64,000 nucleotides of DNA from Dipteris shenzhenensis (taxonomy: Eukaryota), in the NCBI GenBank assembly GCA_047967505.1, contig CM106538.1. The stretch is one strand, 5' to 3'. A model generated the notes under the pieces. That model searched no databases. It was not told where the DNA came from and saw only the letters and a program-made list of their open reading frames with translations. Every line of letters begins with the position of its first letter. Position 1 is the first letter of the stretch. This document shows positions 126 through 24,646 of this stretch, piece after piece. Made by a program: the position numbers and the translations under genes.

Positions 126-3100
126 TAACACACCTCAAATACTATTTTTTGGTGGTTGTGCATAATACTTGTTGATGAAAAACTGGGTTTGTGCCGACTT
201 TGACCATCCAAAGCATATCTGATGGGCACGATACTTTGCAAGAACCTCAACATAGGTTGTATTGATGTGTGTGAAAAGTATCATGCCCATCAGGTATGAG
301 TGCCTTTGAATACACACCTCAGATACTATTCTTTGGCAATTGTGCATAACACTTGATGAAAAATGGGGTTTGTGGCGTGTTTGGCCATCCAAAGAATATC
401 CGATGGACATGATAATTTTCATGCGCCTCTAATTAGATTATATGAACACATGTGAAAATAATTATTCCCATCGAGTATGAGAGCATTCAAATAATACACC
501 TCAGATACTATTTTTTGGTAGTTGTGCATAACACTTGGTGAAAAATAGAGTGGTGGCATGTTTGATGATCCAAAGCATATCTGATGGGCATGATATTTTT
601 CATGTGCCTCAACATAGATTGTATTAATGTGTGTATAAAGTATTTGCATTTGAATGACACACCTCAGATACATTTTATGGCAGTTGTGCATAACACTTGG
701 TGAAACACGGAGTTTGTGGTGACTTCGACCATCCATAGGATATCTGATGGGCACGATAATTTGGAAACAGATCAACATAGGTAGGATTGACACATGGGAA
801 AAGTATCATGCCCATCATGTGTGTTCACATTTGAATAACACACATAGATCTTGTTTTTTGGTGGTTGTGCATGACACTTAGTGATGAAAAATAGGGTTTG
901 TGGCGAGTTTGACCATCTAAAGCATGTTCAATGATGATACTTTGCACATGACTCAACAAAAGTTAAATTGACATGAGTGCAAGGTTTTATCCTCATCTGG
1001 TATGTGCGCATTTAAATAACACACCTCAAATACTATTTTTTGGTAGTTGTGCATAATACTTGATGAAAAACTGGGTTTGTGCCGACTTTGACCATCCAAA
1101 GCATATCCGAAGGGCACAACACTTTACACACACCTCAACATAGGTTGTATTGACATGTGTGCAAAGTATCGTGCCCATTGGGTATGAGTTGAAATTTGAA
1201 TAACACATGTCAAATACTTTTTTTTTTTGTAGTTGTGCATTACACTTGGTGAAAAATGGGGTTTGTGGTGCATTTGACCATGCAAAGCATATCTAATGGA
1301 CATTATATTTTTCATGCACCTCTAATTAGGTTAGATTAAGATGTGTGCAAAGAATTGTGCCCATTTGTATGAGAGCATTTGAATAATAAACCTTAGATAC
1401 TAATTTTTGCTGGTTGTGCACAACACTTGGTGAAAAACTGAGTTTGTAGCACGTTTGACCATTGAAAGCATATCCGCGATGGTGGGCACAATATTTTGCA
1501 TATGCCTCAACATATATTGTATTGATCTGTGTTCCAAGTATAGTGCCCATAGGTATGAGTGCATTCGAATGACACACCTTAGATACTATTTTTTGGCGGT
1601 TGTGCATAACACTTGGTGAAAAACAGGGTTTGTGGCAACTTTGACCATCCAGAGCATATATGATGGGCACCATACTTTGCATACAGATCAACATAGGTTG
1701 TCTTGATGCATGTGAAAATTATCACGCCCATCGATTATGTGTGCATTTGAATAAAACACCTAAGAGCGTGTCTTTTGGCCGTCGTGCACTCGGGGGGGTC
1801 ACTATGTATAAACCCTCTATATCACGTGCATTCAAGGCCTATATTTAGAATCCCTTATCTGTAAAATATTTTGTTAATAAAATGTACCCCTTTTCTATAC
1901 AAATCCGTAAATTTTTCCCAAAACTATTTTAAATAGTGCCTTATGTATATTTATTTCTGTAAATTTTATAAATAAAAAATATCGTTCTATTGAAGTCACG
2001 TGATAGGGTTACATATGATGAGTGACCCCCCCGAGGTCGTGCATAACACTTGCTGAAAAATGAGGTTTGTGGCAAGTTTGACCATCCAAAGCATATTTGA
2101 TGGGCAAGATACGTTGCACAAGCCTCAAAATCTATTAGATTAAATTGTGTCAAGAGTATCATGCCAATCAAGTATGTGCTTGTTAGAATAAAACACCTCA
2201 AATACTCTTTTTTGGTGGCTGTGCATAACAATTGGTTATGCATTACACACCTCAAATACTGTTTTTTGGCAGTGGTGCATAACACTAAAACGGGTTTTGT
2301 GGTGACTTTGACCATCTAGATCATATACGATGGGCATGATACTTTGAACATGGCTCAAAATAGGTTGCATTGATGAACTTTCAAAGTATCATGCCCATCG
2401 GGTATGTGCGCGCTCGAATAACACACCTTAAAGCATGTTTTTGGCGGGTTGTGCATGACAATTAGTGAAAAATGGAGTTTGTGGCATGTTTCACCAACCA
2501 AAGCATATTCGGTGGGCACAATACTTTGCACAGATCTCCAAATAGGTTTGATTGACACGAATGAAAAGTATCATGTCCATCCAATATGTGCACGTTCGAA
2601 TAACATACCTCAAACTCTATTTTTTGGTGGTTGTCTATAACAAACACTTGATGAAAAATGCAGTTTGCGGGGCGAATTTCACCATCCAAAGCATATGAAA
2701 TGGGCATGATACTTTGCACACAACTCAAAATAGGTTGTATTGATTCACGTGCAAAGTATCGAGCCCATCTAGTATGAGCGCATTTGAATAACACACCTCA
2801 AATATTATTTTTTAACACTTGGAAAAATGAGGTTTGTGACGTGTTTGACCATCCAATGCATATCTCATGCACAAAATATTTTTCATGCACCTCAAAATAG
2901 ATTCTATTCACACTTGTTCAAATCATCTTACCCTTTGGGTAAGAGTGCATTCGAATAATACACCTCAGGTACTATTTCTTGGCGGTTGTGCATAACACTT
3001 GGTGAGAAACCATGTTTGTGGCATGTTTACTATCCAAAGCATATCCGATGGGCATGATATTTTGCACATGCCTCAACATAAGTTCTATTGATGTGTGTCA

Positions 3101-3875
3101 AAAGTCTCGTGACCATTTGATATGAGCACATTCGAATTGACACACCTTAGATACTATTTTTTTGTGGTTGTGCATAACTTGGTGAAAAATGGGGTTTGTG
3201 GTGACTTTGACCATTGATGGGCATTATACTTTGCAAAAAGCCCAAAATATGTTGTATTTATACACATGAAAAGTCTTGTGCCCATCACATATGTGCATGT
3301 TCAAATAACACACCTTAGAGCATGTTTTTGGGTGGTTGTGCATAACACGGTGAAAAATGGGGTTTATGGCAACTTTAACCATCCAAAGCATATCCGATGG
3401 TCATGATACTTTGCACAAGACTCAACATAGGTTGGATTCACATGACTGAAGAGTATCATGCCAATCGGGTATGTGCACATCCGAATAACACACCTTAAAT
3501 TCTATTTTTGACGGTTGTGCACAACACTTGATGGAAAATGGGTTTGTGGCAACTTTGACAATCCAAAGCATATACGATGGGTGCGATAACTTGTACATGC
3601 ATTAACATAGTTTGTATTCATGTGTGTAGAGAGTATCATGTCCATTGGTTATGTGAATGTTCGAATGACACACCTCAAATACTATTTTTTGACGGTTGTG
3701 CATGACACTCGGTGAAAAACAGGATTTGTGGGGACTTTGACCATTGAAATCATATCTGATGGACATGATAATTTGCATGTGCTTTAATCTAGAATTTAGT
3801 GATGCATGTGCAAAGGATCGTACCCATAAATTATGTGCACAATCAAATAACACACCTCAAATATTATTTTTTGGC
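126..3875. repeat. Tandem satellite, ~180-185-bp monomer, about 19-20 diverged copies
   Basis: The motif TAACACACCTCARATACTATTTTT...GTTGTGCATAACACTTG...TTTGACCATCCAAAGCATAT recurs near 126, 310, 491, 836, 1017, 1201, 1384 and 1570, with ~181-186-bp spacing. Confidence 0.93.
1789..2035. mobile_element. MITE (247 bp) with 15-bp TIRs and 8-bp TSD, inserted in the satellite
   Basis: TIRs are CTCGGGGGGGTCACT / AGTGACCCCCCCGAG. The TSD GTCGTGCA lies at 1781-1788 and 2036-2043, and the interior is AT-rich. Confidence 0.9.
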
Positions 3876-4683: not shown

Positions 4684-5118
4684 TCAAGTCCTTAGCCTAA
4701 ATTCAACCCATTCAAGAGCTGAGCTCATCTCATCCTCATCGATGTAGTTAAAATTATAGAAGAGAAGTAAGGATTGATGAATTTTCTCTTGCATAACACT
4801 TTGTTTATTCCGAATGGCTTGCGCTTCCTCGGGGGAAAATCTTCCATAACGAGCCACACGCGAAGATATCTCACTTTGAAAGTCTATCAACTCTCTCCTA
4901 TATGACTGCAATTTATCTATTTCAGTAGTAGCCATACTTATTTTTCTTTCCTCTTCCTTCTCTAGGCCCTTCTGACAAGCAAAGTCATCCTTCTCGTACT
5001 GGGTTAATGGAGCTGGATTTTGCTTTCTCTCCTCTCTCTTTCCTTGGTTCTCGGCAATCCATTCTTTGAGGCTGCTAATGGCTTGCTCGACAGAATCGAT
5101 TACCTTAAAAAGATCCAT
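4684..5118 (-). CDS. Hypothetical ~144-aa charged helical protein (MDLFKVIDSVEQAISSLKEW...VEFRLRT)
   Basis: This is the non-repetitive, protein-like C-terminal part of ORF 4684-5631, with ATG at 5118 and minus-strand TATAAA motifs near 5700 and 5965. No family was recognised. Confidence 0.45.
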   Translation of the reverse strand: MDLFKVIDSVEQAISSLKEWIAENQGKREERKQNPAPLTQYEKDDFACQKGLEKEEERKISMATTEIDKLQSYRRELIDFQSEISSRVARYGRFSPEEAQAIRNKQSVMQEKIHQSLLLFYNFNYIDEDEMSSALEWVEFRLRT

Positions 5119-5119
5119 A

Positions 5120-6160
5120 ATGGCTGCAAGATGAAAGGAGTATGCTTGAGAAGAGGAGGTAAGGCTGCGGGCAAGATGGAAGGAGCAAGCTTGAGGAGAG
5201 GAGTAAGGTAAGAAGAGTAAAGTGGAAGAAGTGTGGAGAGGAGTAAGGTAAGAAGAGTAAAGTGGAAGAAGTTTTTGCTGCGGGTGAGATATAGAAGATG
5301 AACGAGGTGAGGAAGGTAACGAGAGTGAGGAAAGATATAAAAGACTAACGAGGTGAGGAAGGTAACGAGAGTGAGGAAGAGAGTGAGGAAAGATATAGAA
5401 GACGAACGAGGTGAGGAAGGTAACGAGAGTGAGGAAGGTAACTAGAGGAGATAAGGCAAGATGAAAGGAGTATGCTTGAGAAGAGGAGGCAAGGCTGCGG
5501 GCAAGATGGAAGGAGCAAGCTTGAGGAGAGGAAGGAGCAAGCTTGAGGAGAGGAGTAAGGTAAGAAGAGCAAAGTGGAAGAAGTGTCTGCTGCGGGTGAG
5601 ATATAGAAGATGAACGACTACTAGCGGGCAAGATGGAAGGAGCAAGCTTGAGGAGAGGAGCGGGTGAGATATAGAAGATGAACGACTACTAGGGAATTTA
5701 TAGAACTACAGATGCAAGACCGTAATGCGAGATGACTAGATGCAAGATCGTAATGCGAGACATTATAAAATAAAATGATGGGATGCAAGACCGTAATGGG
5801 AGACATTTGAGACATATTAGATAGTGATAGTACATTGAAATCTATAAAGTAAAATGATGGAACACAGGAATGATATAATTAATAGAATCTCATCATGAAG
5901 AGCAAAGTGCAAGAAGTGTCTGCTGCGGGTGAGATATAGAAGATGAACGACTACTAGGGAATTTATAGAACTACAGATGCAAGACCGTAATGCGAGATGA
6001 CTAGATGCAAGATTGTAATGCGAGACATTATAAAATAAAATGATGGGATGCAAGACCGTAATGGGAGTCATTTGAGACATATAAGATAGTGATAGTACAT
6101 TGAAATCTATAAAGTAAAATGATGGAACACAAGAATGATATAATTAATAGAATCTCATCA
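5120..6160. repeat. Mosaic of GA-rich direct repeats plus a ~260-bp tandem duplication
   Basis: Repeated modules include GAGGAAGGTAACGAGAGT, GGAGCAAGCTTGAGGAGAG and GCGGGTGAGATATAGAAGATGAACG. The segment ~5660-5895 is repeated at ~5925-6160. Confidence 0.85.
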
Positions 6161-6448
6161 TGAGATACTTGCTGTACATAATAAATGATAGATTTTGAGT
6201 ACATTGAAATCTATAAAATAAAGTGATGGAACATAAGAATGAATTAGACTTTCAAAAAAGTAAAACCTAATGTATTGTACATAATAAATTAGACTTTCAA
6301 AAAAGTAAAACCTAATGTATTGTAATGAAAAAATATCATAAAATATCCTAATGTATTGCAACATTTAACATAAGTTTTAAAAACACTATCATTAATCGAT
6401 ACAAACAAGATAAAAATCTTCAAGGACTCATGTTTCTTTCTACATGTT

Positions 6449-9400
6449 TTACAACTGAATAGAGTCTGATGAGTTCTCTTGAGGCTGTGATTCTCTAAGA
6501 GTACATTGAGTCTCTACTTGTGTGGATGGTGTACATTGAGATTCTACTTCTGGTGCAATCGGGATAGACTTAATCTCTTCCTCCTTTACAAGATGTGATG
6601 TTGTAGATGCACATTGAGTCTCCACTTCTTGTGTAGGAAGAATGCATTGAGTCTCTAATTCAAGTGGTTCTTCATTGAGTCCATCATGTTGTTTCCCAAT
6701 GATAGCAGTTAGATAGTGAACAGTCTTAGCCACAAAATCTTGTAGCTCGAGCTTGGTATATGCTTCTATGGAGACATGTTCAAAAATTTCATTGAGATAC
6801 AACATGAAGTTGTACGCAATTCTCCACCCACTACTAAACATGTCCTTTTGGTCCACTGCGAGGCGTGTCTGGAAATTTGGTTGGTCTTGATGCTCCCTGA
6901 TTTTCATAATCGCAGAAACTAACTTGTTTGCAGACCTGTCCATCATGACATATGACAAAGTGAATTTGTGTGTAGTAAATAGTAACTTGATGCATGTTCA
7001 TAATGATATGATAAAAGAACACTTACTTGAACACCCCGTGAAAGCCTGTAATTGAGTTGACAAACCAACAATGGTTGTCATCAAGGTCCCATACTATAAG
7101 GCTCCAATGTGAACTACATCACCAATAAAGAGCGATAAGATTTATCACAATATTAAGTATTAATTGACACAATATTGTAAATAAGAGAGTAAAAGAAAGA
7201 TTGACACCATACTTACTTCTCATAGTATGGCATAAAGACAAGTAGTATGCCATCCAAGTCTAAAGGTTGTAGAATTGAACAAACATCATCTACTGTCTTC
7301 TTGGTATCACTAAGTACAGCTGAAAGAAGAGAATCGAGCATACAGACGCGATTCTGTACTGATCTAGGAAAATGAGATATAACCGTACTGCAGCAATAAA
7401 TAAACAAATGTTAGAAGCAGATTGAATCAAATGATTGAAGTATCAAGTCAAGAGATGTTCATATCAAACTTGAGGATGGCCATCATGACTTTGTCATTAG
7501 CCTCTTTCAAAGGGTCGGAGAGGATTGTAACTTCCTCGCTACCAAAAGTCAAAACACGAGGTTGCTTGCTAATGATGACCTTAACCTCAGAAGAGCTCCC
7601 CATTTCGTCCAATACAGCGGTTACATCAGGACAACTTATGGGCGTAGCAACCAATGTTTCCTCTGGATGCTCCACCACGTTATCAATAAATGCCTTAATG
7701 ATAGATGACATAAATGCCTGCAGATGCAAGTCTGTATATGTGGACAATGAGGTTTCACCGCCTCTCAAATCAAAAATTTGAGCAAGGAGCAAGAAGCAGT
7801 TATATCCAACTCTCCACCCACAACTGTGGTCATCATTCTGCTTTGCTGCAGGGCATGTTACATACTCTATTTGATCTTCCAAGTCACCCTCCATTTGCAT
7901 AAGTGCATCTATAGCACTTACCAACTTTCGAGCAGATCTACACATCAAAATAGAAAACATAAATGAATGTGTGTATTGCATAGGATGCATCTCATTGACA
8001 TAATTATGACACAAGTAGGTTATACTTACTCTGACACACTGCCATGGATAGATGCTATTGAATTGACAAAGAAGCATTGCTTGGCTAAGATGTCCACAAT
8101 TACCAAGCTCCAATGCAAGCTGCATTATCAATTAAGAATAATTATTATTTGATATAATCCTCCACAATGTAAGAGATAAGCTAGGTAGGGATTGATACTC
8201 ACTCTTCGTGATATGCGGTAAAGATAACTCGCGCCGCAGTCAAATCAATAGGTTGCAACCACTTAAAAATGTCATCTATGGTCTTCTCCTTATTGCTAAG
8301 TACACTAGAAACAAGAGGATCGACCATATATGCACATCTTTGTATATATAGCGAAAGCTGTTGTAAAACCATACTGCAATAAAAAGAAAAGAATATTAGT
8401 TCATTTGATCCAATGGAAATACAAAAGCATAAAGTCAGTAAAAAGTTTGTGTCAAACCTGAGGATGGCTATTATAACCTTGTCATTGACCTCTTTCTTGA
8501 AGTTTATGAGGATTGAAATATCCTCTTCATCGAATATAAAAGTAAGAGGTTGTTCTCGAACTTGAAACCTAACTTGAAATGACTTCTCCATTTGCTGCAA
8601 TGTATGATTATTTTCTAGAGTCATCCGATGGATAGCCAGAGCAGCTTTGCTTTCTTGAGATGAGCTTTCATGATTCTCTGCTCCAACTATGTCCTCCTCA
8701 TCCTCCTCCTCTCCCTTCTCCTATAAAAGGATAAAATAATTATGAGATTCAAAATTTTAAATTAATTATAAATTTAAAAAGACCTTTAAATGAATAAAGA
8801 AAATTAAACATAAGTCTTCATACCTCTACATATCTTCGTGGTCTTTTTATGTAACCTTCAGAGGCAAGGTCAGTGTCATATCCATCTTCCTCTGCTTCCT
8901 TGCTATTGCTGGTATCCTCACTATTATATCCAGAGCTTTGATCATTTTCATCATCTTTCTTGCTCTCATCGTACATGATCTGCTCTATGTCATCCTCTTC
9001 ATGTGAGATTGGACCTTTCTTATCAAACTTTATTGTGAGAGAAGCCACGGTATCAAGGTATTCCAAGCAAGCAGGGCTCTCAATAATATTTACATTGTGT
9101 CCTTTTCTGATAAGAGCTTCGAACAGATGTCCCATTCGGCACAATGTGACTTCCCATCCAGGCGGTAGCAAAAATTCCATCATACTAATTAAAAGATCAG
9201 CACTTTTTGCTGGCCTTTCATAGTGATTTGCATTGCGATGGAGGGGACTTGGAGCTTCATGCTCTTCCAACAGTAGTTGCAATCTCTTTGCATTCCCTCT
9301 TATATTGTTTTGTAAGGAGTGATCATTATAAGGGCTCTTCATGCACAAGAAAAAGGTTTCCAGACTCTGTATCTTGAGACCGCATTCTCTCTTGTCCCTT

Positions 9401-12225
9401 TTTCTTGAGTATATCCCATTGTAAATCTTGAGCTCATTGCCATATTGTTTTTCTAGGGTAGCAGACATTTGTTCCTTGTCATCTTTATCAGCAAATATGA
9501 CTATATTACATTGTCCCACTCTACCAATGGTGGTATGTAATATTCTGTCAAGGAGTGGACGGATGTCATCCGCTGATATTTCATAGACAAAGAAAAGCTG
9601 AGGTCTCTCCCAAGCAGTGTCGTCGGACAAAAAATCACTCAATGAAACTCCCTTGCACTCAACACTCTTTCCAGACTCTGAAATGATTTCATGTATGAAA
9701 TAAAAGCCCTTGTTCAAAGTCTTTTCTTTTCTGAGAGTGTGGTTGTTGATGACTTTTTGTGCATATGCATACACATTTTCCGGAATGTCATTTCTCATAG
9801 AGGGAGTAATTTCAGATCCATCATCTTCTACTTTCACCCATTTATGCGCCCAAGCCTTCTGTTTAGCTGACGGTAAAGCTGATGCCATCTGCCTCACAAT
9901 GTTATGATCAATTTTACATTGGCTGATTGGAATATTTTTTTCTCCCAATAAATATTCAATTGCACTCTTTACTGCATCACGCTTCACCTGTTGGATGATG
10001 TTATCTTCCATGCAATGATCTTTATCCTTTTTGCCAAAAAACCATTCTTTTGACATTAATTTCTCTGCAGCAAGACTTGCGTATTTATCTGGTAGGTTTC
10101 TTAAAGGCCTCCACATCCGAGCTGTCATCTCTTTTTTCTCAATCTTCTTTGCCTTCTCTTTAATCAATGATGGAGCCTCATATGTAACATCTCCTTTCTC
10201 ACATGCAAGACACACGTCTTTGATCTGATGAAAAACTTAATCACTACGGAAAAGTATGCTTGTGTAGTCTTGATACCTATCCCTTACTGTCTTGAAGCTT
10301 GTAATCACCTCAGCTCTTTCCTGCTTTCCCCTTGGTACAATGGCACTCAAGCATGTGTAGAAGTCAACAAGATTATCCGCTTCCACTTTAGTTGCAGTTC
10401 TTTTGAGAGTGGTCAAAGGAGAATTAAAAGTTTTCCATATGGTCCTAGCTTTGAGCAACATCTCTGAAGTGGAGGTGATTTTTCGTAGTGCATAAATGTC
10501 ATGATTAAGTCTTTCCGACTCAATCAAATATTTCTTCTCGTTCTTGAAGATACAAATGCATGCAGAATAGTAGTGAAATTGAGGCACACTCGCGAAAGTT
10601 TGATAAGTAATTTCTCCTTTCTTGTATGCATCTCTAGAGCGCTCATTACAAGCATAGGCATAGTGCTGACCATCTATTGCCTCAAATGTACAATGAGCTA
10701 AGAAATTTCTCTTGGCATCCCTTATATGTCGTTCTGGATCATTCACTGAACTCTGTCCTTCTTGAAGTGAGGGAACTTGTTTTCCGAGGAACTTAGTGAA
10801 TTGCATCTCAAAATCTATAGGCTGAGAGAAATTGATGGATTGACTATAATCTCCCATGACTGGCCAAAATGTTCTTGGACGGAGTACCAAATTAGAAACA
10901 ACTGGTTTTTTTCCATCAATCAAAGCCTGAAAAATCTTTTCAGCATAGGCTGTATCTAAGGTCCTGCTGTTGGTGAAGACACTTGCTTTGACCACTGATG
11001 AAGCATGTATAACTTGAGTCTTCTGGCCCCATATATATCCTGGATCCTCATCTGTCACAGCCTCATTCAAGCGAAGATTTAGGTTCTTCATTGATAACAT
11101 TTCTGCTTCTAGATCTGACTCCATTTCAAGACCCTCCGCATCCTCTTCATGTTCTTCCTCTTCTCTTCTTTGCCCTTTCTTTGTATATGAACGACCTCTT
11201 TTTCCAGTTATAGGACTTGGAACTGTAGCTCGTGAAGTACTTGCCTTTTGCATTTGACGTCGAGGTTTATTTTTTAGGGGCTCAATGTGAACTGCTTTAG
11301 ATCGCCCTACTTCTTCTTCTATTGCCTCAACTTCAGGTATACTTAAGGGCTTCACTTGTTCTGTTATTCCATCAACTTCATGAGTTACACCATCTAAGTG
11401 AGTAATACCATGAACAAGAGATGTGTGTGCATGTCCTGTCTTATCTGATGCATGTCGTGTCTCACTCAATTCAATTTCTGTTTGAGATGCATGTGCATGT
11501 CCGGTCTCCACCAATTCAATTCCTGTCTCAGATGTAGATCCCTTGTAAGCATCCACGTGTACAAGACCCTCATCCATTGCTACAATGTGTTCTGTCTCAT
11601 CCACTCCACTTCCTCTCTCATTTGTATTACCATGAACCAAATCTACATGGCGTGTCTCATCACTTCCTTTCTCATGTGTGGATTCTTGCACCTTAGGTCC
11701 CTCCAATGAAGTTGAACCTTGTTGGATGACACCCTGAAAGTATTCAAGGATAATCTTTGACTGCATTTTTCTTGCTTCCTCAATGGGAAATTCCTCCCAC
11801 ACATGTTGAAGGATCTCCAATGCAGGAACCAATTCAGGAAATCTAGGTGCTTTTGGCGGCGGCATCACAAAGTGCATTGCATCTTTCTTAGAAAGAAGAA
11901 ACGATCTGTTGCTCATTCTTGACTTTGTGTAAATCATCATTGTAGTGCTGTCTTTTTCAATTTTTATTCCTACTAAGGTGCCCCCTTGAATCAAATTGCT
12001 CTTGGAGAAAGATACATTTGATGCGCACTCATCTTTCTCCAACTCTCTCTTTGTCATCACTAGAATGAGATTTCCTTTACTTAAGACCAAGAACCATGCT
12101 TTCTTTGTTGTGTCAACAACTGTCCAGTTTGTGAAGTCCTTTGGGGCATAAATTCTTCCATTGTATTTCAGTGTCATACCATTGACAAATGCTGTAGCCT
12201 CAAGATCCATCCTGTATTCAAGCAC
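6449..12225 (-). pseudogene. Large spliced gene with one in-frame stop: ParB/Srx-like + inactive N4/N6 DNA-MTase-like + two Ulp1 (peptidase C48)-like domains
   Basis: ORFs 10237-12225 and 8818-10215 share a frame and are separated by a single TAA. GT-AG introns at 8721-8823 and 8374-8457 preserve frame into the Ulp1-like exons. Motifs: FEAIDGQH, RPAKSADLL...PPGWEV...GHNVNIIE, LHWSLVIVD, QNDDHSCG, SHWSLIVWD, QKDMFSSG. Confidence 0.7.
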
Positions 12226-12339
12226 AACACAAATTTTAAGTACTTTGACAAACTACAATTACTTTGAAAAATCAAAAGTACAATGAGTCCCATTAATACA
12301 CCTCCAGTTTGTATTCTTCCCAATCATATAAGTATCAAT

Positions 12340-14620
12340 TTCATGCTTTGGGAATAGCCTAAAAGGCTTTACAAGGCTTAGAGCATAAATGCTTTGGGAA
12401 TAGCCTAAAAGGCTTTACAAGGCTTAGAGCATAAATGTGAAAAAAAATAAGGATTTACAATGATCTCTGAATACAAATTTGAAGTTTGTCATATATAAGT
12501 ACAAAATGCTCTGTCAACTCCCGCAACTGATATAAGTGTAAAATGCTCTGTCAACTTCCACAACTGTAATCTGTCATGTCCACTGATACAACTTTCAATC
12601 ATCTTGAAAGTTTAAAAACCTTAATCGTTGCTTAAATGGTAGGGTTGTTGTGACTGTGAAACCGAATGTGAATGTGAACGAATGGACTGACTCCGATTAG
12701 GAACTAGTCGGGAAATTTTGAGCATGGCTTTGATTGGTTTTTTTGGAGTTCTCTCCTCTAAGGACAAACTAATCTATGCTAATCTAGACTACACCAACCG
12801 TCGAAGCGAAGAAAAGCAAGAAATAATTTCTTTTCCATTGTTCTTTTTAATATCCTTAGGTTGCGAATTAAAAGCAAAAAATAATCTTTCCATTATTCTT
12901 TTTAATACACTAAGGTTGTGAGTTTAAAAAAGATAAAATTTATATTTTATCTTTTTTAAACTCACACCCCTTTCTCTCTCTCTCTCCCCCCCTTCTCTCC
13001 CCCCCTTCTCTCTCGCTGCCGCCCTCATCCTCCCACCCCACCTTCCCCATTCTCACTCCCACGCCCACGTCCATTCTTTCACCTTCCCCATTTCCACTCC
13101 CTCTCCCACTCCCATCCTCCCACCACTTTCTCTCTCTCTCCCCCCCCATTCTCTCTCGCTGCCGCGGCAGCGACCCCCCCTTCTCTCTCTCTCTCTTCTC
13201 CTTCTCATTTTAAAAAAGATAAAATTTATATTTTCAAAAACTAATTTACTTACAACTCATAAGAATTGAACATTCACATTATCCTCCCACCCCTTTCTCT
13301 CTCTCTCCCCCCCCATTCTCTCTCGCTGCCGCGGCAGCGACCCCCCCTTCTCTCTCTCTCTCTTCTCCTTCTCATTTTAAAAAAGATAAAATTTATATTT
13401 TCAAAAACTAATTTACTTACAACTCATAAGAATTGAACATTCACATTAATAAGAAGTTAAAATCTTAATAAATTTGAATTTATATAATAAAAACTATAAA
13501 GTAGTTTAACTTAAAGTTTATGAAAAAATAATGTAAAATAAAGAAAACAAGACTTAAAATTAAAATTTTAATATTTACCTAGAAGAATATATTAATTCTC
13601 CCTAAAAAGAAATAAATTAAAGTAATAATAACGAATATTCTCCCTAAAAAGAAATAAATTAAAGTAATAATAACGAATGTAAGTTAAACTACTTTTAAAA
13701 TTTTAATTTAAAATGTAATAAAATTAAAATTATACTCTTTATATTCCAAAACAAAATGCATTATAGTCTAAATTAAACTAGTAAATTAAAAATGAAAGTG
13801 AAACTCATTTTAAATTCAAAAACAAAGAAAAATTTAAAATTGAAGTTTCTACAAGTTTTGCTTTTAGCATACATTTGTCTTTTCACATCCAGGGGTTTGT
13901 CTTTTGAAACACAAGGTTGTCTTTTATCACAATTTTCACATCCACGCGTTTGTCTTTTGAAACACAAGGTTGTCTTTTATCACAATTTTCACATCCACGC
14001 GTTTGTCTTTTGAAACACAAGGTTGTCTTTTATCACAATTTTCAAGTTTTCACACGTTTGTCTTTTCAAACACAAGGATTCAAGTGAGAAATTTTGAAAT
14101 TCTAGTTTCCACACGTTTCTCTTTTCAAACACCAAGGTTTGTCTTTTCAAACACAAGGATTCATAGTTTAAAAAAAGGCGGGAAATTTTGAAATTCTAGT
14201 TTCCACACGTTTCTTTTTCAAACACCAAGGTTTGTTTGTTTAAGTTTCGACTAAATCACACACCAATCTTCTCTAATATGCCTCATTGATCGTAGCTCCC
14301 AAATTCTTCCATCAAAACATCTCTCCTTTATCTCTTCTTGATCGTCGCCCACTCATTTTTTCTCCTCATTGGTAAGATTTTTTATCTCGATCGTACTTTC
14401 TCTTGTGCCCTTCCTCTCTAAATTTTCATCAAACACCAAGGTTTATAGTTTTGTTTGTTTAAGTTTAGACTAAATCACATACCAATCTCCTCTCATATGC
14501 CTCATTGATCGTAGCTTCTTCATCTTGTCTCGATCGTCGCCCACTCATTTCTCCTCTTCATTGGTAAGATTTTCTATCTCGATCGTACTTTCTCGTGTCC
14601 TCCCTCTCTAAATTTTCATC
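12340..14620. repeat. AT-rich region with several short tandem duplications (probably intronic)
   Basis: Duplications include a ~45-bp unit twice at ~12344-12435, ~13125-13280 repeated at ~13293-13447, and a 42-bp unit twice at ~13596-13678. GTTTGTCTTTTGAAACACAAGGTTGTC occurs three times at ~13895-14040, and a ~200-bp unit twice at ~14230-14620. Confidence 0.8.
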
Positions 14621-14699: not shown

Positions 14700-16905
14700 T
14701 CTTCATTTCCCCTCTCTCTCTCTCTCTCTCTCTTCCTTTCTCCTCACCTTTTTCCTCTCTCACTTGCGCTCCCCACTCTCCTCTCCACTCTCTCTCTCAC
14801 TTGCCGCGATCTCCCCCCCCATCCCCTCTCTCTCTCTCCTCCCCCTCTCTCTCTCTCTCTCCACCCCTCCCTCTCTTTCGCTGCCGCGGCAGCGGCCCCT
14901 CCCTCCTCTCTCTCTCTCCCTCCCCCTCTCTCTCGCATCTCCCCCCTACTCTCTCTCCCCGCCCCCTCCTCTCTCGCTGCCGCGGCAGCGGCTCCCCCTC
15001 TCTCTTCCCTCTCCCCACCCCTTCCCTCTCCCCCTCTCCCCCTCTCTCTCTCCCTCCCCTCTCTCTCGCTACCCCCCCTTCTCTCTCTCCCCCCCTCCCT
15101 CTCTCGCTGCCGCGGCAGCGGCCGCGGCCCCCCCCCTTCTCTCTCTCTCCCCCTCCCCTCTCTCGCTCCCTCCGCCCCCTCCCTCCTTCCCTCTCCCCCC
15201 CCTCCCCCTATCTTGCTGCCGCGGCAGCGGCCGCGGCCCCCCCCCTTCTCTCTCTCTCCCCCTTCCCTCTCTCTCGCTGTCCCCGGCCGCTCCCCCCTTC
15301 CTCTCCCCCCCCTCCCCCTCTCTCGCTGCCGCGGCAGCGGCCGCGGCCCCCCCTTTCCCTCTCCCCCCTCTCTCGCTCCCCGGCCCCCCCCCCCTTCTCT
15401 CTCTCTCCCCCTTCCCTCTCTCTCGCTGCCCCCGGCCCCTCCCCCTTCCCTCACCCCCCTCTCTCGCTCCCCCCTTCCCTCTCCCCCCCCCCCCCTCTCT
15501 CGCTGCCGCGGCCCCCCCCCTTTCTCTCTCTCCTCGCCTCCCTTTTCCCCCCCCCCTTCTCTCTCCCCTCCCCTCCCTCTCTCGCTGCCGCTGTCGCGGC
15601 AGCGGCCCCCCCCCCTCTCTCTCTCTTCCCCCCCCTTCCCTCTCTCCTCCCCTCCCTTTCCCCCCCCCCTTCTCTCTCCCTCCCTCCCTCTCTCGCTGCC
15701 GCTGCCGCGGCAGCGGCCCCCCCCTCTCTCTCTCTTCCCCCCCTTCCCTCTCGCTGCTCCCTCTCCCCCCCCTCCCCCTCTCTCGCTGCCGCGGCAGCGG
15801 CCGCGGCCCCCCCCTTTCTCTCTCTCCTCGCCTCCCTTTCCCCCCCCCTTCTCTCTCCCCTCCCCTCCCTCTCTCGCTGCCGCTGCCGCGGCAGCGGCCC
15901 CCCTCTCTCTCTCTTCCCCCCCCTTCCCTCTCTCCTCCCTCCCTTTCCCCCCCCCCTTCTCTCTCCCCTCCCCTCCCTCTCTCGCTGCCGCTGCCGCGGC
16001 AGCGGCCCCCCCTCTCTCTCTCTTCCCCCCCTTCCCTCTCGCTGCTCCCTCTCCCCCCCCTCCCCCTCTCTCGCTGCCGCGGCAGCGGCCGCGCCCCCCC
16101 CCCCTTTCTCTCTCTCCTCGCCTCCCTTTCCCCCCCCCCCTTCTCTCTCCCATCCCCTCCCTCTCTCGCTGCCGCTGCCGCGGCAGCGGCCCCCCCTCTC
16201 TCTCTCTTCCCCCCCCTTCCCTCTCTCCTCCCCTCCCTTTCCCCCCCCCTTCTCTCTCCCCTCCCCTCCCTCTCTCGCTGCCGCTGCCGCGGCAGCGGCC
16301 CCCCCCCTCTCTCTCTCTTCCCCCCCCTTCCCTCTCGCTGCCCCCTCTCTCCCCCTTTCCCTCTCCCCCCCTCCCCCTCTCTCGCTGCCGCTGCCGCGGC
16401 AGCGGCCCCCTCCCTCCCCTCTCCCCCTCCCCCTCTCTCGCTGCCGCGGCAGCGGCAGCGGCCCGCTCCCCTCCCTCTCCCTCCTCCCTCTCACCGCCCC
16501 CCTTCTCTCTCCCCCCCCTTGCCCCCCCCCCCCCCCCTTCCTCTCCCTCTCCCCCCTCCCCCTCTCTCGCTGCCACTGCCGCGGCAGCGGCCCCTCCCCT
16601 CCCTCTCCACCCTCGCCTCCCCTCCCTCTTCCCCCTCTCTATCCCCGCCCCCCCCTCCCTCTCTCGCCGCCCCCCCTCCCTCCCCCCCTCTGCGTTGCCG
16701 CGGCAGCGGCCTCCCCCTCCCCTCTCTCTCTCCCCCCCCTCGCTGCTTCTCCCCTCTCTCCCCTCTCTTTCCCCCTTCCCCTTCTCTCCCCCCTCCCTTT
16801 CTCTCCCCTCTCTTTCCCCCCCCTTCTCTCGTCTCTCTCCCTCTCTCTTTCTTTCTCTCTTTTGCTGCCGAGGCAGCAAGACTCTCTCTCTTCTTTTCTC
16901 TCTCT
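14700..16905. repeat. Polypyrimidine (CT-rich) minisatellite punctuated by the palindrome CGCTGCCGCGGCAGCG
   Basis: About 18 exact or variant palindrome copies are spaced ~50-130 bp apart in C/T-only spacers. Two more copies lie at ~13156 and ~13323. Confidence 0.9.
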
Positions 16906-16969
16906 AAAAATCTATCCTTCACTTTTCTCTCTTTATAATAAAATTTCAAAGAATACAAATTTTAAAAAC

Positions 16970-17110
16970 AGTACCTGGAAAAAGTTGAAATCGATGCTTG
17001 TGCTTGCTTTTGCTCTTCCTCCTCTTTTTGCTTCTCCTCTTGCTCTTCCTTGTTGAAATGAGAGAAACAATGAGAGAAGGAGAGTATATATAAGAAAAAC
17101 TAGGGTTTTG
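16970..17110 (-). promoter_or_regulatory. Candidate promoter and first non-coding exon of the minus-strand fusion gene
   Basis: On the minus strand there is a telo-box AAACCCTA (~17101-17108), a TATATA (~17085-17092) and a donor-like CAG|GTAC at ~16975. The link to the gene is inferred only. Confidence 0.35.
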
Positions 17111-17189
17111 AGTGCTTCTCTCTCATTGGTCCTTCTATAACATTATCTCCTCTCCCATTGGCCTCTCTATTAGATTATCTTCTCTCTCT

Positions 17190-18070
17190 CTCCCACCCAC
17201 TCCCATCCTCCCACCCCACTCTCACTCCCATCCTCCCACCCCACCTCCCCCATTCTCACTCCCACGCCCACGCCCATTCTTTCACCTTCCCCATTTCCAC
17301 TCCCTCTCCCACTCCCATCCTCCCACCCCACCCCTCCCACTCCCACCCTCACTCCACCCCCACCTCCCCCATTCCCACTCCCACTCCCACTCCCATTCTC
17401 CCACCCACTCACATCCTCCCACCTACACGTCTAATTCCCCTCCCCATCCTCCCACCCCACCCCTCCCCCCCCCATTCCCACTCCCACTCCCATTCTCCCA
17501 CCCTTATCCTCCCACCTCACCCCTCCCACTCCCTCCTCCCACTCCCTTTTTCCCACCCCCCCACCTCCCCCATTCCACTCCCACTCCCATTTTCCCACCC
17601 CCCCCACCTCCCCCACTCCCACTCCCTCCCCCATCCTCCCACCCCACCCCTCCCACTTCCACCCCCACCTCCCCCATTCCCACTCCCATCCTCCCACCTC
17701 ACCCCTCCCACTTCCACCCCACCTCCCCCATTCCCACTCCCTCTCCCACTCCCATCCTCCCACTCCCACTCCCCACCCCACCCCTTCCACTCCCACTCCC
17801 ATCCTCCCATCCTCCCACCCTCACCCCACCCCCACCTCCCCCATTCCCACTCCCACTCCCACTCCCACTCCCACTCCCACTCCCATTCTCCCACCCCCAC
17901 CTCCCCCATTCCCACTCCCTCTCCCACTCCCACTCCCACTCCCATTCTCCCACCCCCACCCCCACCGCCCCCATTCCCACTCCCTCTCCCACTCTCCCTT
18001 TCTCCCACTACCACCCTCCCACACTCCTTTCTCCACTTTCCCACTCTCCCTTTCTCCCACTACCACCCTC
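17190..18070. repeat. (CCCACT)n-like C-rich low-complexity tract (G-rich minus strand)
   Basis: Tandem CCCACT/CCCATT/CCCACC units; perfect CCCACT run at ~17847-17885. Confidence 0.9.
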
Positions 18071-18149
18071 CCAACTATCAATTCCACTATTACTTATAAA
18101 TTCTAATTAAAACTATTACTTAAATAAATGATATTACTTGAAAACACTC

Positions 18150-18614
18150 ATAGGATTTAAGGTTTAGGATATCGTGGTTTGGGTTTAGGATTTGGGGTTT
18201 GGTGAGTTTAGGGTTTAGGGTTTAGGGTTCAAGGTTTGAGGGTTAGGGTTTGGGGGTTAGGGTTTAGAGTTTGGTGGTTTAGGGTTTAGGGTTTAGGGGT
18301 TAGGGTTTAGGATTTAGGGTTTGGGGTTAGGGTTTAGGGTTTGGAGTTTAGGGTTTAGGGTTTGGGGTTTAGGGTTTAGGGTTTGGGGTTTAGGGTTTAG
18401 GGTTTAGGGTTTGGTTTAGGGTTTGGGTTTAGGGTTTGGGTTTTGGGAGTTAGGGTTTAGGGTTTAGGGTTTAGGGTTTGGGAGTTAGGGTTCAGGGTTT
18501 AGGGTTTAGGGTTTGGGGGTTAGGGTTTGGGGTTTGGGGTTAGGGTTAAGGGCTTAGGGTTTAGGATCTAGGGTTTAGGAGTTAGGGTTTAGAGTTTAGG
18601 GTTTGGGGGTTAGA
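18150..18614 (+). repeat. Plant telomeric repeat array (TTTAGGG with variants) ending at an assembly gap
   Basis: About 65 TTTAGGG/TTAGGG/TTTGGGG units run up to the N gap. Confidence 0.95.
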
Positions 18615-19825: not shown

Positions 19826-22800
19826 CTCCAAGTGACTGCAGCACTCCCAAAAGTCCACTGGTAGATCCGTCCCCTATCCAGAAATACTACCAGCCCAATC
19901 AGCATCAGTGTATCCATGCAACTGTATCTGGACCCCAGCCTCATAAAAATAGTCCAATACTTGCAATGTGGACTTCACATACCTGAGTATGCGTCTAGCC
20001 GCATCTCAAAATGCGGTTTCCTTGGAGCCTGCATAAACTGACTTACCAACCCAACAGCATAGCTCAAATTTAGCCTGGTAATAGTCATGTAAATCAAGCT
20101 TCCTACTATGCGTCTGTACATAGTAGGGTCCTCTAGAAGCTCACCTGCATCTGCGCTCAGCTTCACATTCTGCTCCAAAGGAACTGAAATATGCTTACAG
20201 CCTGTCATCCCATATTTGGATAGCATGTCCAGTCCATACTGCCTCTGCAAGTGCTGTATCCCACTTGGTGATCTAATCACCTCAATGCCCAAGAAATAAC
20301 GCAGCTCTCCCAAATCCTTCATCTCAAACTTATGCCTCAATAGCATTTTCACATGAAGGATATCTTCATCACTATCACCTGTGATGATCAAATCATCAAC
20401 ATAAATGACCAGCAGCATAATCCCTTTCTCTGTTTTTCTCACATAGAGTGAGAAATCTGCCTTGGAAATCTGAAAGCCAATAGTGACAAGATATTGTCCT
20501 ATCTTGTCAGACCATGCTCTAGGTGCTTGCTTCAAGCCATACAAGGCTTTCTTCAACCTGCAAACGAACTCGGGATGAGTAGCATGAACATAACCTGCTG
20601 GCTGCTCCATAAAGACCTCTTCTTGCAAATCACCATGCAAGAAGGCATTCTTTACATCCATCTGATGTAAAGACCATCCCTTTGATGCAGCCATAGCAAT
20701 GGCTGCTCTTACGGTTGCCATCCTTGCAACCGGGCTGAAAGTTTCTTTATAATCAATGCCATATGTCTGTGCATACCGCTTGACAACTAATCTTGCCTTG
20801 TATCTATTCACAGAACCATCTGCATTGTGCTTGATCTTATAAACCCACTTACAACCAATTGCATTCTTGCCTTTAGGCAAAGGCACCAATTCCCATGTAG
20901 CATTAGCATCCAAGGCATCCATTTCTTCATCCATGGCTTTCTCCCATTTTTCGTTTCCCATGGCTTGCTCAAAAGAAGTGGGTTCTAGTTCCTGTATCAC
21001 TTTGACCATATAGGCATAGTGAATGGCTGTAAATCCATCATATTTCAGCCTATCCACAGGATACCTAACCCTGGTAGACCTGCGCAAAATAGGCTCACTT
21101 CCAGGTGCTCTCAAAACATCCCTGGTCTTCCTTACTCCAGGTGTAACAACAGAAGGAATACCCAACTCATCATCAATGCTCTGTTCTGAGCCACTGGATT
21201 CACCATCCACACAAGAGTGACCTGCATTCACATCATACATGGGCTGATCTACCTTCTCTTTTCCTTTTCATGATACCTGCGTACCACTCTCTGCATTGCT
21301 TTGAGGGGATTCTCCTGATCTCAATCTGCCTGTCCATGGCGAAGTATGTGAACCACTGGTAGAGGACACTCCAGGTCCACTGATATTTTGTGATTGCTGC
21401 TGTGCATTCTGTGCAGCATTACCATTTTGTGCATCTACATCAATCATCACATTTACTGGTTTATACCAGCTGCTTTATACCAGCTGCTCATCTCATCAAA
21501 AACAACATCTCTGCTCACTGTGAACTTACGTGTAGAAGGGTTATAGCATCTATACCATTTCTGCTGCAGAGAATAACCAATAAAGACGCACTTCTCAGCT
21601 TTTGGATCCAACTTGGACCTCAACTCATCTGGCACATGGACATAGGCAATGCAACCAAAAATCTTCAAATGAGAAATATCTGGTTTCCTACCAGTATACA
21701 TCTCCTCTGGCGTCATGCCATGTATTGCTGCAGTGGGAGTCCTGTTCATTATATAGACTGCTGTAGCAACTGCTTCAGCCCAATAATAATCTGGTAGATC
21801 TTTTCATTTAGCATAGCCCGAGATACCTCTCCAATATGCCTGTTTTTTCTTTCTGCAATTCCATTTTGCTGTGGGGTATGGCTGCATGAATATTGCTGCT
21901 TTATACCATGCTCCTGCAAGAACCTTGCAAACTCATTTGAGAGGTACTCTCCCCCTCCATCTGACCTTAGGCATTTTATTTGCAGGCCTGTTTCTTTTTC
22001 AACCATAGCTTTGAAAGCTTTGAAGTGCCCAAACACTTCACTTTTCTTTTTCATAAAATACACCCACAGTTTTCTGCTGAAGTCATCAATAAATGTGACA
22101 AAATAGTGACAGCCTCCAATAGATGCAGCTTTTGTAGTCCACACATCAGAGTAGATTAATTCCAATGGCTTTTTACTCTCTTGAACATGCCTAGGAAAAG
22201 GTTTCCTTACCTGTTTCCCAAATTGACAAGCTTCACAAACCTTGTGCATTTCTACAACCTTGAATTTAGGCAATCCTACAACAACATTTTGGGCTTGCAT
22301 TGATTTAAGTCACTGTATATTAACATGACCAATGTGTTTGTGCTAGATATCAATATCTGCAACTACACCGGTCCCATGTGCAAACATTGCTGCACTCAAT
22401 TCAAGCATGTCCGCATCCAACGTAAATATCCTGCTCTTCTTCTTTCCTTTTGCTATCAAGCGACCGTTATTTTTCATATCCTCAACAAAGCATCCATGAG
22501 GATTAAATCTAACCTGCAAGCCCTGCTCAACCATCTGACCAATAGAAACCAGGTTCTTGGTGATGTTCGGGACATGAAATACATCAGACAAGTATTTCTT
22601 TTTCCCATCCTGCATAGACAAAGGAATTTTGCCAATCTGCATAATAGGATGTGCAGTATCATCACCAGTCTCCACAAATCCTGGCTTTTCCATCTTCCTT
22701 ACATCTTGCATCCATTCTGCATGACCTGTCATGTGGTTTGACGCACCTGAGTCAACATACCACACATAATTTTGTTCTTCTGCACTTGTCACAGAATTGA

Positions 22801-24646
22801 TCATATGCTGCACCATAAAAAGATGCTCATTTCTGTCATTACCTTGCCTGCTAGAAGATGCATAATTGCCTTGCTGCAATTTTCCATTCATAATGTCATT
22901 CTGCTTTTTGTAGCAGTCCTTAGCCATATGACCCATTTTGCCACAATAGTAGCATTCAACATTGCTGTTTGCATTTTGGCTTCTCTGCCATCCACCACGG
23001 CCTCTTTGGCTCCCCCTGCCTCTAGAGTTACCACGTCCTCTTGCATAGGACTGGTTTTCTTGCGTTTGCTGCATATTCTGATTTCTACCACGACCTGCAG
23101 ATCGGCCTCCTCTACCTCTGCCTCTACCTCTGCCAGCATTTGAGTAGAAGACAGCTTCTTTTGAAGTTCCTGCTGAAGAAGATGCACCACCATTTCTCTG
23201 CTCTTCAGAAATTAGAAGAGCAATCAGCTCCTCAAAATCAGGAAATTTTTCACGGACGGCAATGGATGTCTGGAACTGTGCATAATCCTTTCCTAGACCA
23301 TTCAAGGTCACAGAGAACAAATCGTCATCATCCACTGGCGACCCAATGGAAGCAAGTGCATCTGCAATTTTCTTCACTTTCATGTGGTAGTCATTTATGC
23401 TCAAATTTTCTCTTTGCACATTGTGCAACTCCTGTTTGAGTTGCATTTTCCTGGCTTGCGTATTTGTGCTATACATTTTTGCCAAAGTATCCCATGCCTC
23501 CTTTGCCGTATTTGCATCCTGAATATGCACAATCATGGAGTCTGAAATACTGATAGACAGCCAGTACATAACTTTCCTGGCTCTCTCATGCCATCCTTTG
23601 AATGCCTGCATTTCCTGTTGACTGGGAACATTAGGAAGAACAGGTTCTTCTTCATTTCTTATAATGAATTCCCAATAGCCTTTTCCCATTAAGAAATTCG
23701 TCATTCTAAACTTCCATGCCTGGAAGTTGTTCTTGTCAAGCTTTTCAGTGACAATCTGTGAAAGAGAATCAGATGCCATTACAGAACACTGCAAAATATT
23801 CTGTCACTGCAAAGAACACAGCTTTTGCCTCACACAGGCAGATCTGCAAAACTGATAAAAGTGGTATTTCACCACACAGTCACTTCCTAGTGACGATTTT
23901 GCATCAGAAGGCAACAGGCATGAATCTGCAACCCCCAATATCTCTGCACACAGGCATACGATGCAATTTCTGTGGCACCTTTCCACCGACTAGCCGCGCA
24001 GTGGTCGCACAACAAAAAACTGGGCCTTTTTCTGAGTGCCTGCGAAGAGCTTCCGCCTTCAAAACGGGTCCCGAAACGGCCTCAAATCAGAAAAATAAAG
24101 TCACACCGCGCTCTCGCCACACCGCGAAGGGCGTCTCAATCTGAAACAGTGCACTCCTGCACTTCTGGCTGTGCTACCTGCAGAGATTTGCTCCCAAACT
24201 CGAAATAGGAAAGCAACACTGGTCCTCTTACCAGGACACCACGAACTTGGCTTGCTTTCTTGAGCTCCTTACCATGAACAAGTCTCTGATACCATGTGAA
24301 GATTGTGGGAGAGAGGGAAGGAGTCTCACTTGCGGCTTTCTCGCATGCACAATGGGGGAATACACACAAAGGTGGAGGCTGAAAATAGTTTTCTTCTTCT
24401 TAGTTGTGAAAGCCAAAAGAACTCTAGTACAAAGAAATAGAAGAACCCTATATGTGGGTCTCAAACCAAACTCAACTAACTAAGGTGGCATACTAACTGA
24501 GCCACGAACTAGTGTAGATAAGGATAGCTGTCATCCAGCTATTATTCGTGGGCGGTGTACCAACCGCATCTCCAGCTAACAAGTCGGTGACATAAATGCA
24601 CAACAGTCACCCTGGCATATCGCGAGTGGAGCTCGATATCTCAACA
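19826..24646 (-). mobile_element. Ty1/copia element, family 1 (copy A), truncated within RNase H
   Basis: 5' LTR at 24295-24646, followed by PBS TGGTATCAGAG. Gag begins MASDSLSQ and has a CYYCGKMGH knuckle, followed by protease WYVDSGAS, integrase and RT YVDD. Homology stops at ~19826, with no PPT or 3' LTR. Confidence 0.95.

Follow-up and report, generated by a model that had tools for sequence, protein, structure and literature searches.

What might a single gene do with a prokaryote-like motif and two SUMO protease-like regions in one chain? The question is raised by a minus-strand gene in a stretch of 64,000 nucleotides from Dipteris shenzhenensis (GenBank assembly GCA_047967505.1, contig CM106538.1), the whole of which is called the window here. 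An initial annotation, made from the letters alone, read the gene as a novel fusion of a ParB/Srx-like part, a DNA methyltransferase-like part and two Ulp1 domains, possibly an anti-silencing factor encoded by a mobile element. Our analysis leads to a different reading, in which we place about even trust: the window would hold a nonsense-mutated copy of a repeated streptophyte-type gene, probably carried by a mobile element or descended from one, whose conserved core and two Ulp1/C48 modules together may form a locus-targeted protease. A full-text search of the literature (supplements unopened) found no description of this family, nor of a plant protein bearing ParB, methylase and Ulp1 parts, in agreement with the annotation's impression that the architecture was undescribed.

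Gene model, protease modules and the conserved core

The minus-strand frame extends from stop to stop over 8818-12252 (1144 codons) and has one TAA inside, at 10237-10239, so that two open reading frames (ORFs) of the same frame result, one of 671 residues (10237-12252) and one of 472 (8818-10236). Counted from the first Met, at 12210, the frame has 1129 codons up to the end of exon 1 at 8824, and the TAA is codon 658. The initial annotation was right about the frame (8824-12225) and its single stop, but not about a length of ~1135 codons. Relatives of the encoded protein, identified here by P numbers, are continuous through the stop. P0003 (100 residues) spans it at 46% identity with a His at that codon, and P0006 and P0008 align through the same point over more than 400 residues. 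This continuity indicates that the window gene is a nonsense-mutated copy of an otherwise continuous gene.

The gene model read from the sequence has eight exons, separated by seven GT-AG introns of 82-103 nucleotides, with a total of 5124 nucleotides (1707 codons) in which the TAA is the sole internal stop (Table 1). All seven predicted introns preserve the frame through both tandem Ulp1/C48-like modules, and the sequence agrees with the in-frame splicing to Ulp1-like exons proposed at the outset.

The two modules, encoded by exons 2-5 and 5-8, are paralogous: they can be aligned over ~210 residues, and their introns coincide in position and phase. When the two His-Trp exons were scanned alone, PF02902 (Peptidase_C48) was the best Pfam family for both, with E 0.0076 and 16.5 bits for exon 4 (profile positions 96-120 of 217) and E 0.37 and 11.0 bits for exon 7 (positions 95-120 of 217); both scores lie below the gathering cut-off of 20.7 bits because only 28-29 residues were scanned. 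The 29-residue exon of module 1 has four PDB matches, all of them C48 proteases of the ChlaDub type, with the His aligned and an Asn opposite their Asp. The spliced modules were scored against a C48 profile built from 14 PF02902 matches in 7 of 401 bacterial genomes. Module 1 reaches 19.7 bits, a score attained by none of 500 shuffles (best shuffle 3.5), and its His, Gln and Cys are aligned with the profile; module 2 reaches 3.6 bits, which 2 of 500 shuffles attain. The Asp site of module 1 is occupied by Asn in the ungapped ChlaDub alignment and shifts in the gapped profile alignment, and module 2 has the His and the Gln with a Ser at the catalytic Cys site.

Two tandem Ulp1/C48-like modules are thus supported, as first proposed. 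They share with Ulp1/SENP proteases (C48, clan CE) a His-Trp strand, a Gln and a Cys motif in the same order, but differ from them in having Asn at the triad Asp, Ser for Cys in module 2, and a tandem duplication. These residues would allow module 1 to be active as a SUMO or ubiquitin-like protease; module 2 probably binds without catalysing.

Upstream of the modules lies a core of ~700 residues, which by sequence comparison is a small conserved family without a Pfam assignment. When 1.84 billion representatives were searched exhaustively with phmmer, 10 proteins were returned at E <= 0.001, the sole named one being P0005, a hypothetical protein of the lycophyte Diphasiastrum complanatum. The relatives comprise short plant-like fragments (P0002-P0005, P0007) and longer proteins from ENA assemblies (P0006, P0008-P0011, and P0014 with 1199 residues). 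Word-index protein search is nearly blind to the family: one run found none, one found P0007 only, and one found P0016 and P0017, two further relatives of the long ENA kind. The family is recognizable by the signatures LxLRP, FL..V.WEPVDGQH...AC, ES.R.N and K.R..W, beyond which a helical stretch leads to an alpha/beta part, and no Pfam family was found in any member scanned. The two ESM-Atlas clusters nearest to P0008 (0.97 and 0.94; 62 and 55 members) are eukaryotic and unnamed, with Streptophyta the commonest group.

The core is under purifying selection. A public contig of 3577 bases (from the set X1) spans 8640-12213 with 42 differences and one in-frame insertion of 3 bases. Thirty differences at 8890-10002 (codons 751-1121) change 26 codons, 16 synonymously and 10 non-synonymously. 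The ratio of non-synonymous to synonymous rates (dN/dS) is ~0.15 at a site ratio of 4.13 (binomial 3e-6; 9e-4 at an assumed synonymous share of 0.30), an estimate drawn from the 30 listed differences up to 10002 among the 42 on the contig. Such a ratio implies that the family has been kept as a protein.

Origin of the core

The initial annotation took the first part of the core for a ParB/Srx/DndB-like segment with Tyr in place of the motif's Arg, and the second part for a DNA methyltransferase. The peptides that it quoted, LVLRP and a DGQH motif in the form FEAIDGQH, are both present. Taken further, this view makes the core a ParB/Srx domain and a beta-class N6/N4 methyltransferase of prokaryote or phage derivation, both catalytically dead, which a plant mobile element acquired and fused to SUMO proteases. 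Of the rival explanations this one survives best; we nevertheless consider it unlikely, on the evidence that follows.

The family was compared by hhalign with sets taken from bacterial genomes (DndB 23/401, ParB_N 57/61, GmrSD_N 44/151, N6_N4_Mtase 55/81) and with 20 ParB-methylase fusions. With the whole profile, DGQH falls in register with 'iDGQHR' of DndB (E 0.035, 5 columns) and with 'vIDGQQR' of GmrSD_N (DUF262; E 0.16, 8 columns), and local, alternative and global modes aligned nothing but the DGQH columns. A slice around the motif gives E 0.0026 against DndB; 1 of 60 column shuffles reaches its score there and 1 of 60 against GmrSD_N, while 4 of 60 do so against ParB_N and 51 of 60 against the N-terminal part of the fusions. 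One shuffle, probably an artefact, scored ~133 with all four templates and is still counted as reaching the real score. Among the positive controls, methyltransferase against ParB-methyltransferase gave 99.1%, ParB_N against the same fusions 95.5%, and DndB against GmrSD_N 37.7%. The true superfamily pairs DndB and ParB_N, and GmrSD_N and ParB_N, scored only 0.1%, and the value for the first pair indicates that the test is weak at superfamily distance. Whole-profile values for the core ranged over E 0.035-0.88 while the controls worked, which speaks against the ParB-methylase origin.

The likeness to DndB and GmrSD_N thus consists of the same D-G-Q-H tetrapeptide after hydrophobic strand residues. 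It ends there: just 5-8 columns align, and neither family gives a hidden Markov model (HMM) signal in the core family. All 11 family sequences that cover the motif have Y, V, I or F after it, and Arg occurs in none (0/11). According to a preprint, loss of the Arg of the phosphate-binding motif (GxxR, DGQHR, GERR) abolishes nucleoside triphosphate binding in ParB-fold proteins.

Searches of four HMM libraries (Pfam, NCBIfam, PHROGs and PADLOC) at E <= 10 with 11 members of the family alignment A2, including window residues 405-671, P0008 and P0014, and Pfam-only scans of both window ORFs at E <= 1 and of P0002-P0011 at E <= 0.1, found no ParB, DndB, GmrSD or methylase family. When HMMs were built for five prokaryotic families (DndB, ParB_N and GmrSD_N among them), none scored any of the 14 family proteins above shuffled sequences. 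No relevant match came from PDB sequence searches with both ORFs or from a family-profile search, and tblastn found none in 50,697 phage records. The ParB/Srx likeness of the core appears to be limited to the DGQH motif: its register and the absence of the Arg stand as first described, but no family signal accompanies them.

The second half of the claim, the methyltransferase-like segment, is likewise statistically unsupported. With hhalign, the C-terminal part of the core obtains E 0.88 when compared with the methylase set and 0.55 with the fusions; the score of its motif-I slice is reached by 11 of 100 shuffles (fusions) and 43 of 100 (methylases), and the N6_N4_Mtase HMM scores no family protein above shuffles. 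A by-eye match to C-terminal methylase motifs 'X-I-II' was rejected as evidence, since those same proportions of shuffles do equally well. At the by-eye register, which is without statistical support, DPPY and FxGxG are missing in four sequences, which have YEIS, NELQ, DCRR and DCRT, and CRMGH, YQMGF, VQGLT and LVGLT, at these places. In favour of a methylase, the order of predicted strands and helices at P0008 496-710 would, by our own reading, fit a permuted enzyme.

Structure prediction gave models of limited quality. AlphaFold reached a mean predicted local distance difference test score (pLDDT) of 47.0 for window residues 405-671 (11 sequences) and 44.7 for P0008 (14 sequences), in which residues ~25-140 rise to 70-92. 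The P0008 model places the DGQH loop, at pLDDT 70-90, between a strand (104-109) and a helix (111-127), a position which we take to be the site of the ParB/Srx phosphate-binding loop; this placement counts for a ParB/Srx ancestry, as does the DGQH register with DndB and GmrSD_N. Foldseek comparison of the low-pLDDT models with PDB and BFVD returned long meaningless alignments (root-mean-square deviation 17-69) and no ParB or methylase match. The absence of a predicted ParB/Srx fold goes against the initial claim, but models with a mean pLDDT of 45-47 are too poor to refute it firmly.

The remaining argument for a phage source comes from language-model space. For P0008 residues 1-730, every named ESM-Atlas neighbour is a phage cluster with ParB_N (PF02195) and/or N6_N4_Mtase (PF01555), at 0.78-0.79, a range reached by a third of shuffled proteins and rated by the tool as a lead only; the window segment has one neighbour (0.87) with ParB_N on 18% of its members. 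The coincidence of these neighbours with the independent guess of the initial annotation is striking. Fusions of the two domains are reported to be common in prophages, and shared open frames of this kind were seen in the bacterial genomes examined here. The phage and prophage fusions (~440-490 residues) resemble the core in that an alpha/beta domain comes after a 'DGxH'-type motif domain, and they are the nearest named neighbours of P0008 in feature space. The core differs in lacking the Box II Arg, DPPY and FxGxG, in its length (~700 against ~450 residues), and in showing no significant sequence, profile or fold similarity to them.

A giant-virus origin, prompted by Atlas neighbours among the nucleocytoplasmic large DNA viruses at 0.87-0.88, was rejected when a scan of viral contigs gave it no support. 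A pattern scan with the alignment of the ENA group gave 77 viral and 156 metagenome matches, and tblastn confirmed 0 of them. Separately, P0014, P0016 and P0017 are extended at the N-terminus by a common segment with an 'HGWW' motif, which is missing in the window protein, and the N-terminal ~130 residues of the window protein differ from the extension of the longer ENA relatives.

One gene or two, host or mobile element

The fusion itself has to be weighed against the presence of two genes, in which the core protein would end at the long frame's own TGA (8818-8820) and the Ulp1-like exons would belong to another gene or to a fragment captured in the manner of Ulp1 transduplicates. The frame's own stop and the weak predicted donor of intron 1 (GTATGA) speak for such a division, as do the missing transcript support for the junction and the full-length relatives P0008 and P0014, in which an HMM scan finds no C48 family. 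These two relatives, however, are unspliced gene calls on short metagenome contigs, where downstream exons would be missed. Exon 2, moreover, starts right at an AG acceptor, 103 nucleotides downstream and in frame, with no Met-led start ahead of the protease module; the acidic composition of the exon 1 tail carries on into exon 2 across intron 1; and all seven introns belong to one size class. Two genes are on balance improbable, to our minds somewhat more so than a ParB-methylase ancestry of the core. Two joints found in the contig set X2, which skip 95 and 553 bases with sides of 30 and 27, do not match the predicted introns and were not used.

The gene is multicopy in public assemblies. Contig pieces on the stretch fall into the identity bands 99% and above, 95-99%, 90-95% and below 90% with counts of 7, 10, 5 and 2 in X1 and 12, 17, 10 and 8 in X2. 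Tandem repeats and a satellite of 181 bp lie around it, together with a low-complexity block rich in C, a telomere-like array and copia elements. A mobile-element origin is likely on these observations. The mobile-element setting is inferred from copy number alone, because terminal inverted repeats (TIRs), a transposase and a second copy were not found in the window.

The gene could instead be a lineage-specific host gene or its pseudogene, with the near-identical contigs as alleles, strains or segmental duplicates, an account to which we give the same low weight as to the division into two genes. Purifying selection and introns of regular size would suit a host gene, and no transposase, TIR or long terminal repeat bounds the locus. 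Against this stand the pieces at four identity levels, down to below 90%, in one small run, the position of the gene among satellites, low-complexity DNA and copia elements, the nonsense mutation in the window copy, and a scattered and fragmentary representation of the family that resembles that of element genes.

The reading that we favour, a mutated copy of an element-associated gene for a targeted protease, has several observations to contend with. Around the gene in the window there are no TIRs, CACTA ends or flank similarity, no transposase adjoins it, and no second copy lies within the 64 kb; some of the contig pieces could represent alleles or related strains instead of paralogues. The selection estimate has the partial basis given above. 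In the core, Pfam, NCBIfam, PHROGs and PADLOC recognize no DNA-binding domain. The Cys-bearing exons alone match nothing in Pfam or PDB, and Asn for the usual Asp in both modules, together with Ser for Cys in module 2, makes protease activity uncertain. No Pfam family is common among the Atlas relatives of 1673 residues, and the Ulp1 fusion may therefore be restricted to this lineage or be an artefact of prediction. Finally, no RNA run with the stretch was found to confirm expression or any of the predicted splice junctions.

The best-supported analogue of the window gene, by comparison of architecture and setting, is VANC-Ulp1 (KAONASHI). As the relevant passages of a 2026 review have it, KAONASHI or VANC-Ulp1 proteins belong to VANDAL transposons (non-TIR Mutator-like elements) of Arabidopsis and other eudicots and are thought to act on silencing; the VANC protein recognizes short motifs in the element's own non-coding repeats and induces loss of methylation there, and some VANC genes carry a captured Ulp1 domain (PMC13317346). 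The likeness lies in an element-associated targeting part joined to an Ulp1/C48 domain in a repeat-rich setting. The window gene differs in that its N-terminal core is an unrelated orphan family, that it has two tandem C48 modules and not one, and that its lineage, to judge by the relatives, lies outside the eudicots. Pfam scans of the gene's ORFs and of 13 of the 25 window ORFs of at least 200 residues found no VANC/DUF1985 or Mutator-like transposase family.

By this analogy, the intact form of the gene would encode a predicted nuclear protein of ~1700 residues, with a globular N-terminal part, a linker that is disordered, basic and acidic, the ~700-residue core (in which a 'DGQH' domain precedes a helical region and an alpha/beta domain) and the two tandem Ulp1/C48 modules. 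The core might act as a non-enzymatic module for targeting nucleic acid or chromatin, which would tether the protease at particular loci. Module 1 would be the SUMO-type protease, perhaps aided by module 2 as a SUMO-binding pseudo-protease, and the tethered protease would change the SUMO state of chromatin and silencing there, as is thought for VANC-Ulp1 (KAONASHI). Translation of the window copy would break off at codon 658, ahead of most of the core and of both modules. What the analysis shows is the frame with its stop, the exon structure, the likeness to C48 and a constrained, multicopy family; that the protein is nuclear, binds DNA, works as a protease and counters silencing, and which element carries it, are steps that we infer. 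The proposal of an element-encoded anti-silencing factor has thus gained a published analogue, though for this gene such a role is argued from architecture only.

Plant transposons have repeatedly captured Ulp1 domains. Functional data come from one system, VANDAL, where the protein that partners Ulp1 brings about loss of DNA methylation at copies of the element itself. The window gene would provide a second and unrelated Ulp1 partner, with a constrained core outside Pfam and two C48 modules, outside the eudicots, and so a separate system in which to ask what use a repeated element has for a SUMO protease tethered to chromatin. Were the core a dead ParB-methylase pair, a phage DNA-handling cassette would have been reused in plants; if it is not, the core is a new domain family. 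The most specific version, in which a phage ParB-N6/N4-methyltransferase cassette entered a streptophyte mobile element, lost the Arg and the methylase motifs, was preserved by selection as a sequence or chromatin reader and became fused to tandem SUMO proteases, is the least probable of all these accounts; if true, elements would encode a previously unseen class of deSUMOylase or anti-silencing factor, directed to particular loci and assembled independently of VANC.

Features of the locus and its surroundings

Table 1. Coordinates of the gene, its conserved core and neighbouring features in the window (NLS, nuclear localization signal)
Feature	Position	Strand	Remarks
Exon 1	8824..12210	-	1129 codons from first ATG; donor GT 8822-8823 overlaps the frame's terminal GTA-TGA; in order, N-terminal globular part, disordered repeat and NLS-like linker, conserved core, acidic tail
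In-frame TAA	10237..10239	-	His at same site in P0003
Conserved core, part 1	9853..11040	-	'DGQH domain' and helical region, ParB/Srx-like at motif level only; motifs GYIWG, LVLRP 10876-10890, FEAIDGQH 10663-10686, ESERLN 10504-10521, KARTIW 10435-10452; common to P0002, P0003, P0005-P0011, P0014, P0016, P0017
Conserved core, part 2	8970..9730	-	Predicted alpha/beta domain, boundaries approximate; motifs LFFVYE 9580-9597, NIVIFAD 9487-9507, LLPPGWEV 9148-9171, NVNIIES 9076-9096; common to P0004, P0008, P0014
Exon 2	8458..8720	-	Acidic linker and beginning of Ulp1-like module 1
Exon 3	8203..8373	-	Module 1, middle
Exon 4	8030..8119	-	Module 1 His-Trp exon: putative catalytic His; Asn at C48 Asp site
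Exon 5	7470..7937	-	Module 1 Gln/Cys part ('KQNDDHSCGW'), linker, beginning of module 2
Exon 6	7217..7387	-	Module 2, middle
Exon 7	7027..7113	-	Module 2 His-Trp exon
Exon 8	6449..6935	-	Module 2 end ('QKDMFSSGW', Ser at catalytic Cys site), short 'ETQC'-type repeats, stop 6449-6451
333-residue ORF directly 3' of gene	4684-5685	-	Coiled-coil-like end, no Pfam family; partly within tandem repeats 5126-5617
Satellite of ~181 bp, two arrays	125-1765, 2311-3777		69-72% matches; many internal inverted matches
Short tandem repeat blocks either side of gene	5126-6324, 12343-14235		Units 37-265 bp, some 98-100% identical; no similarity between the two sides
C-rich, strand-skewed low-complexity block	14700-18100		GC 0.60-0.64, GC skew -0.65 to -0.79
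Telomere-like array (TAGGGTT)n	18151-18613		~66 copies, 78% matches; interstitial plant-type telomere repeat adjoining the C-rich block
Ty1/copia-type ORF sets (gag, integrase, reverse transcriptase)	19975-23803, 28621-34486, 46751-47632, 55612-59287		Some split by stops
RVT_1 ORF	35770-36459

Within intron 1, the stretch 8748-8782 has far higher depth in metagenome runs and also occurs within a contig of 4630 bases that is otherwise unlike the window, which suggests a dispersed repeat. The C-rich block is marked by recurrent GCTGCCGCGGCAGCGG punctuation and contains (CCCACT)n at 17196-17994; it yields spurious ORFs of 700-800 residues in several frames.

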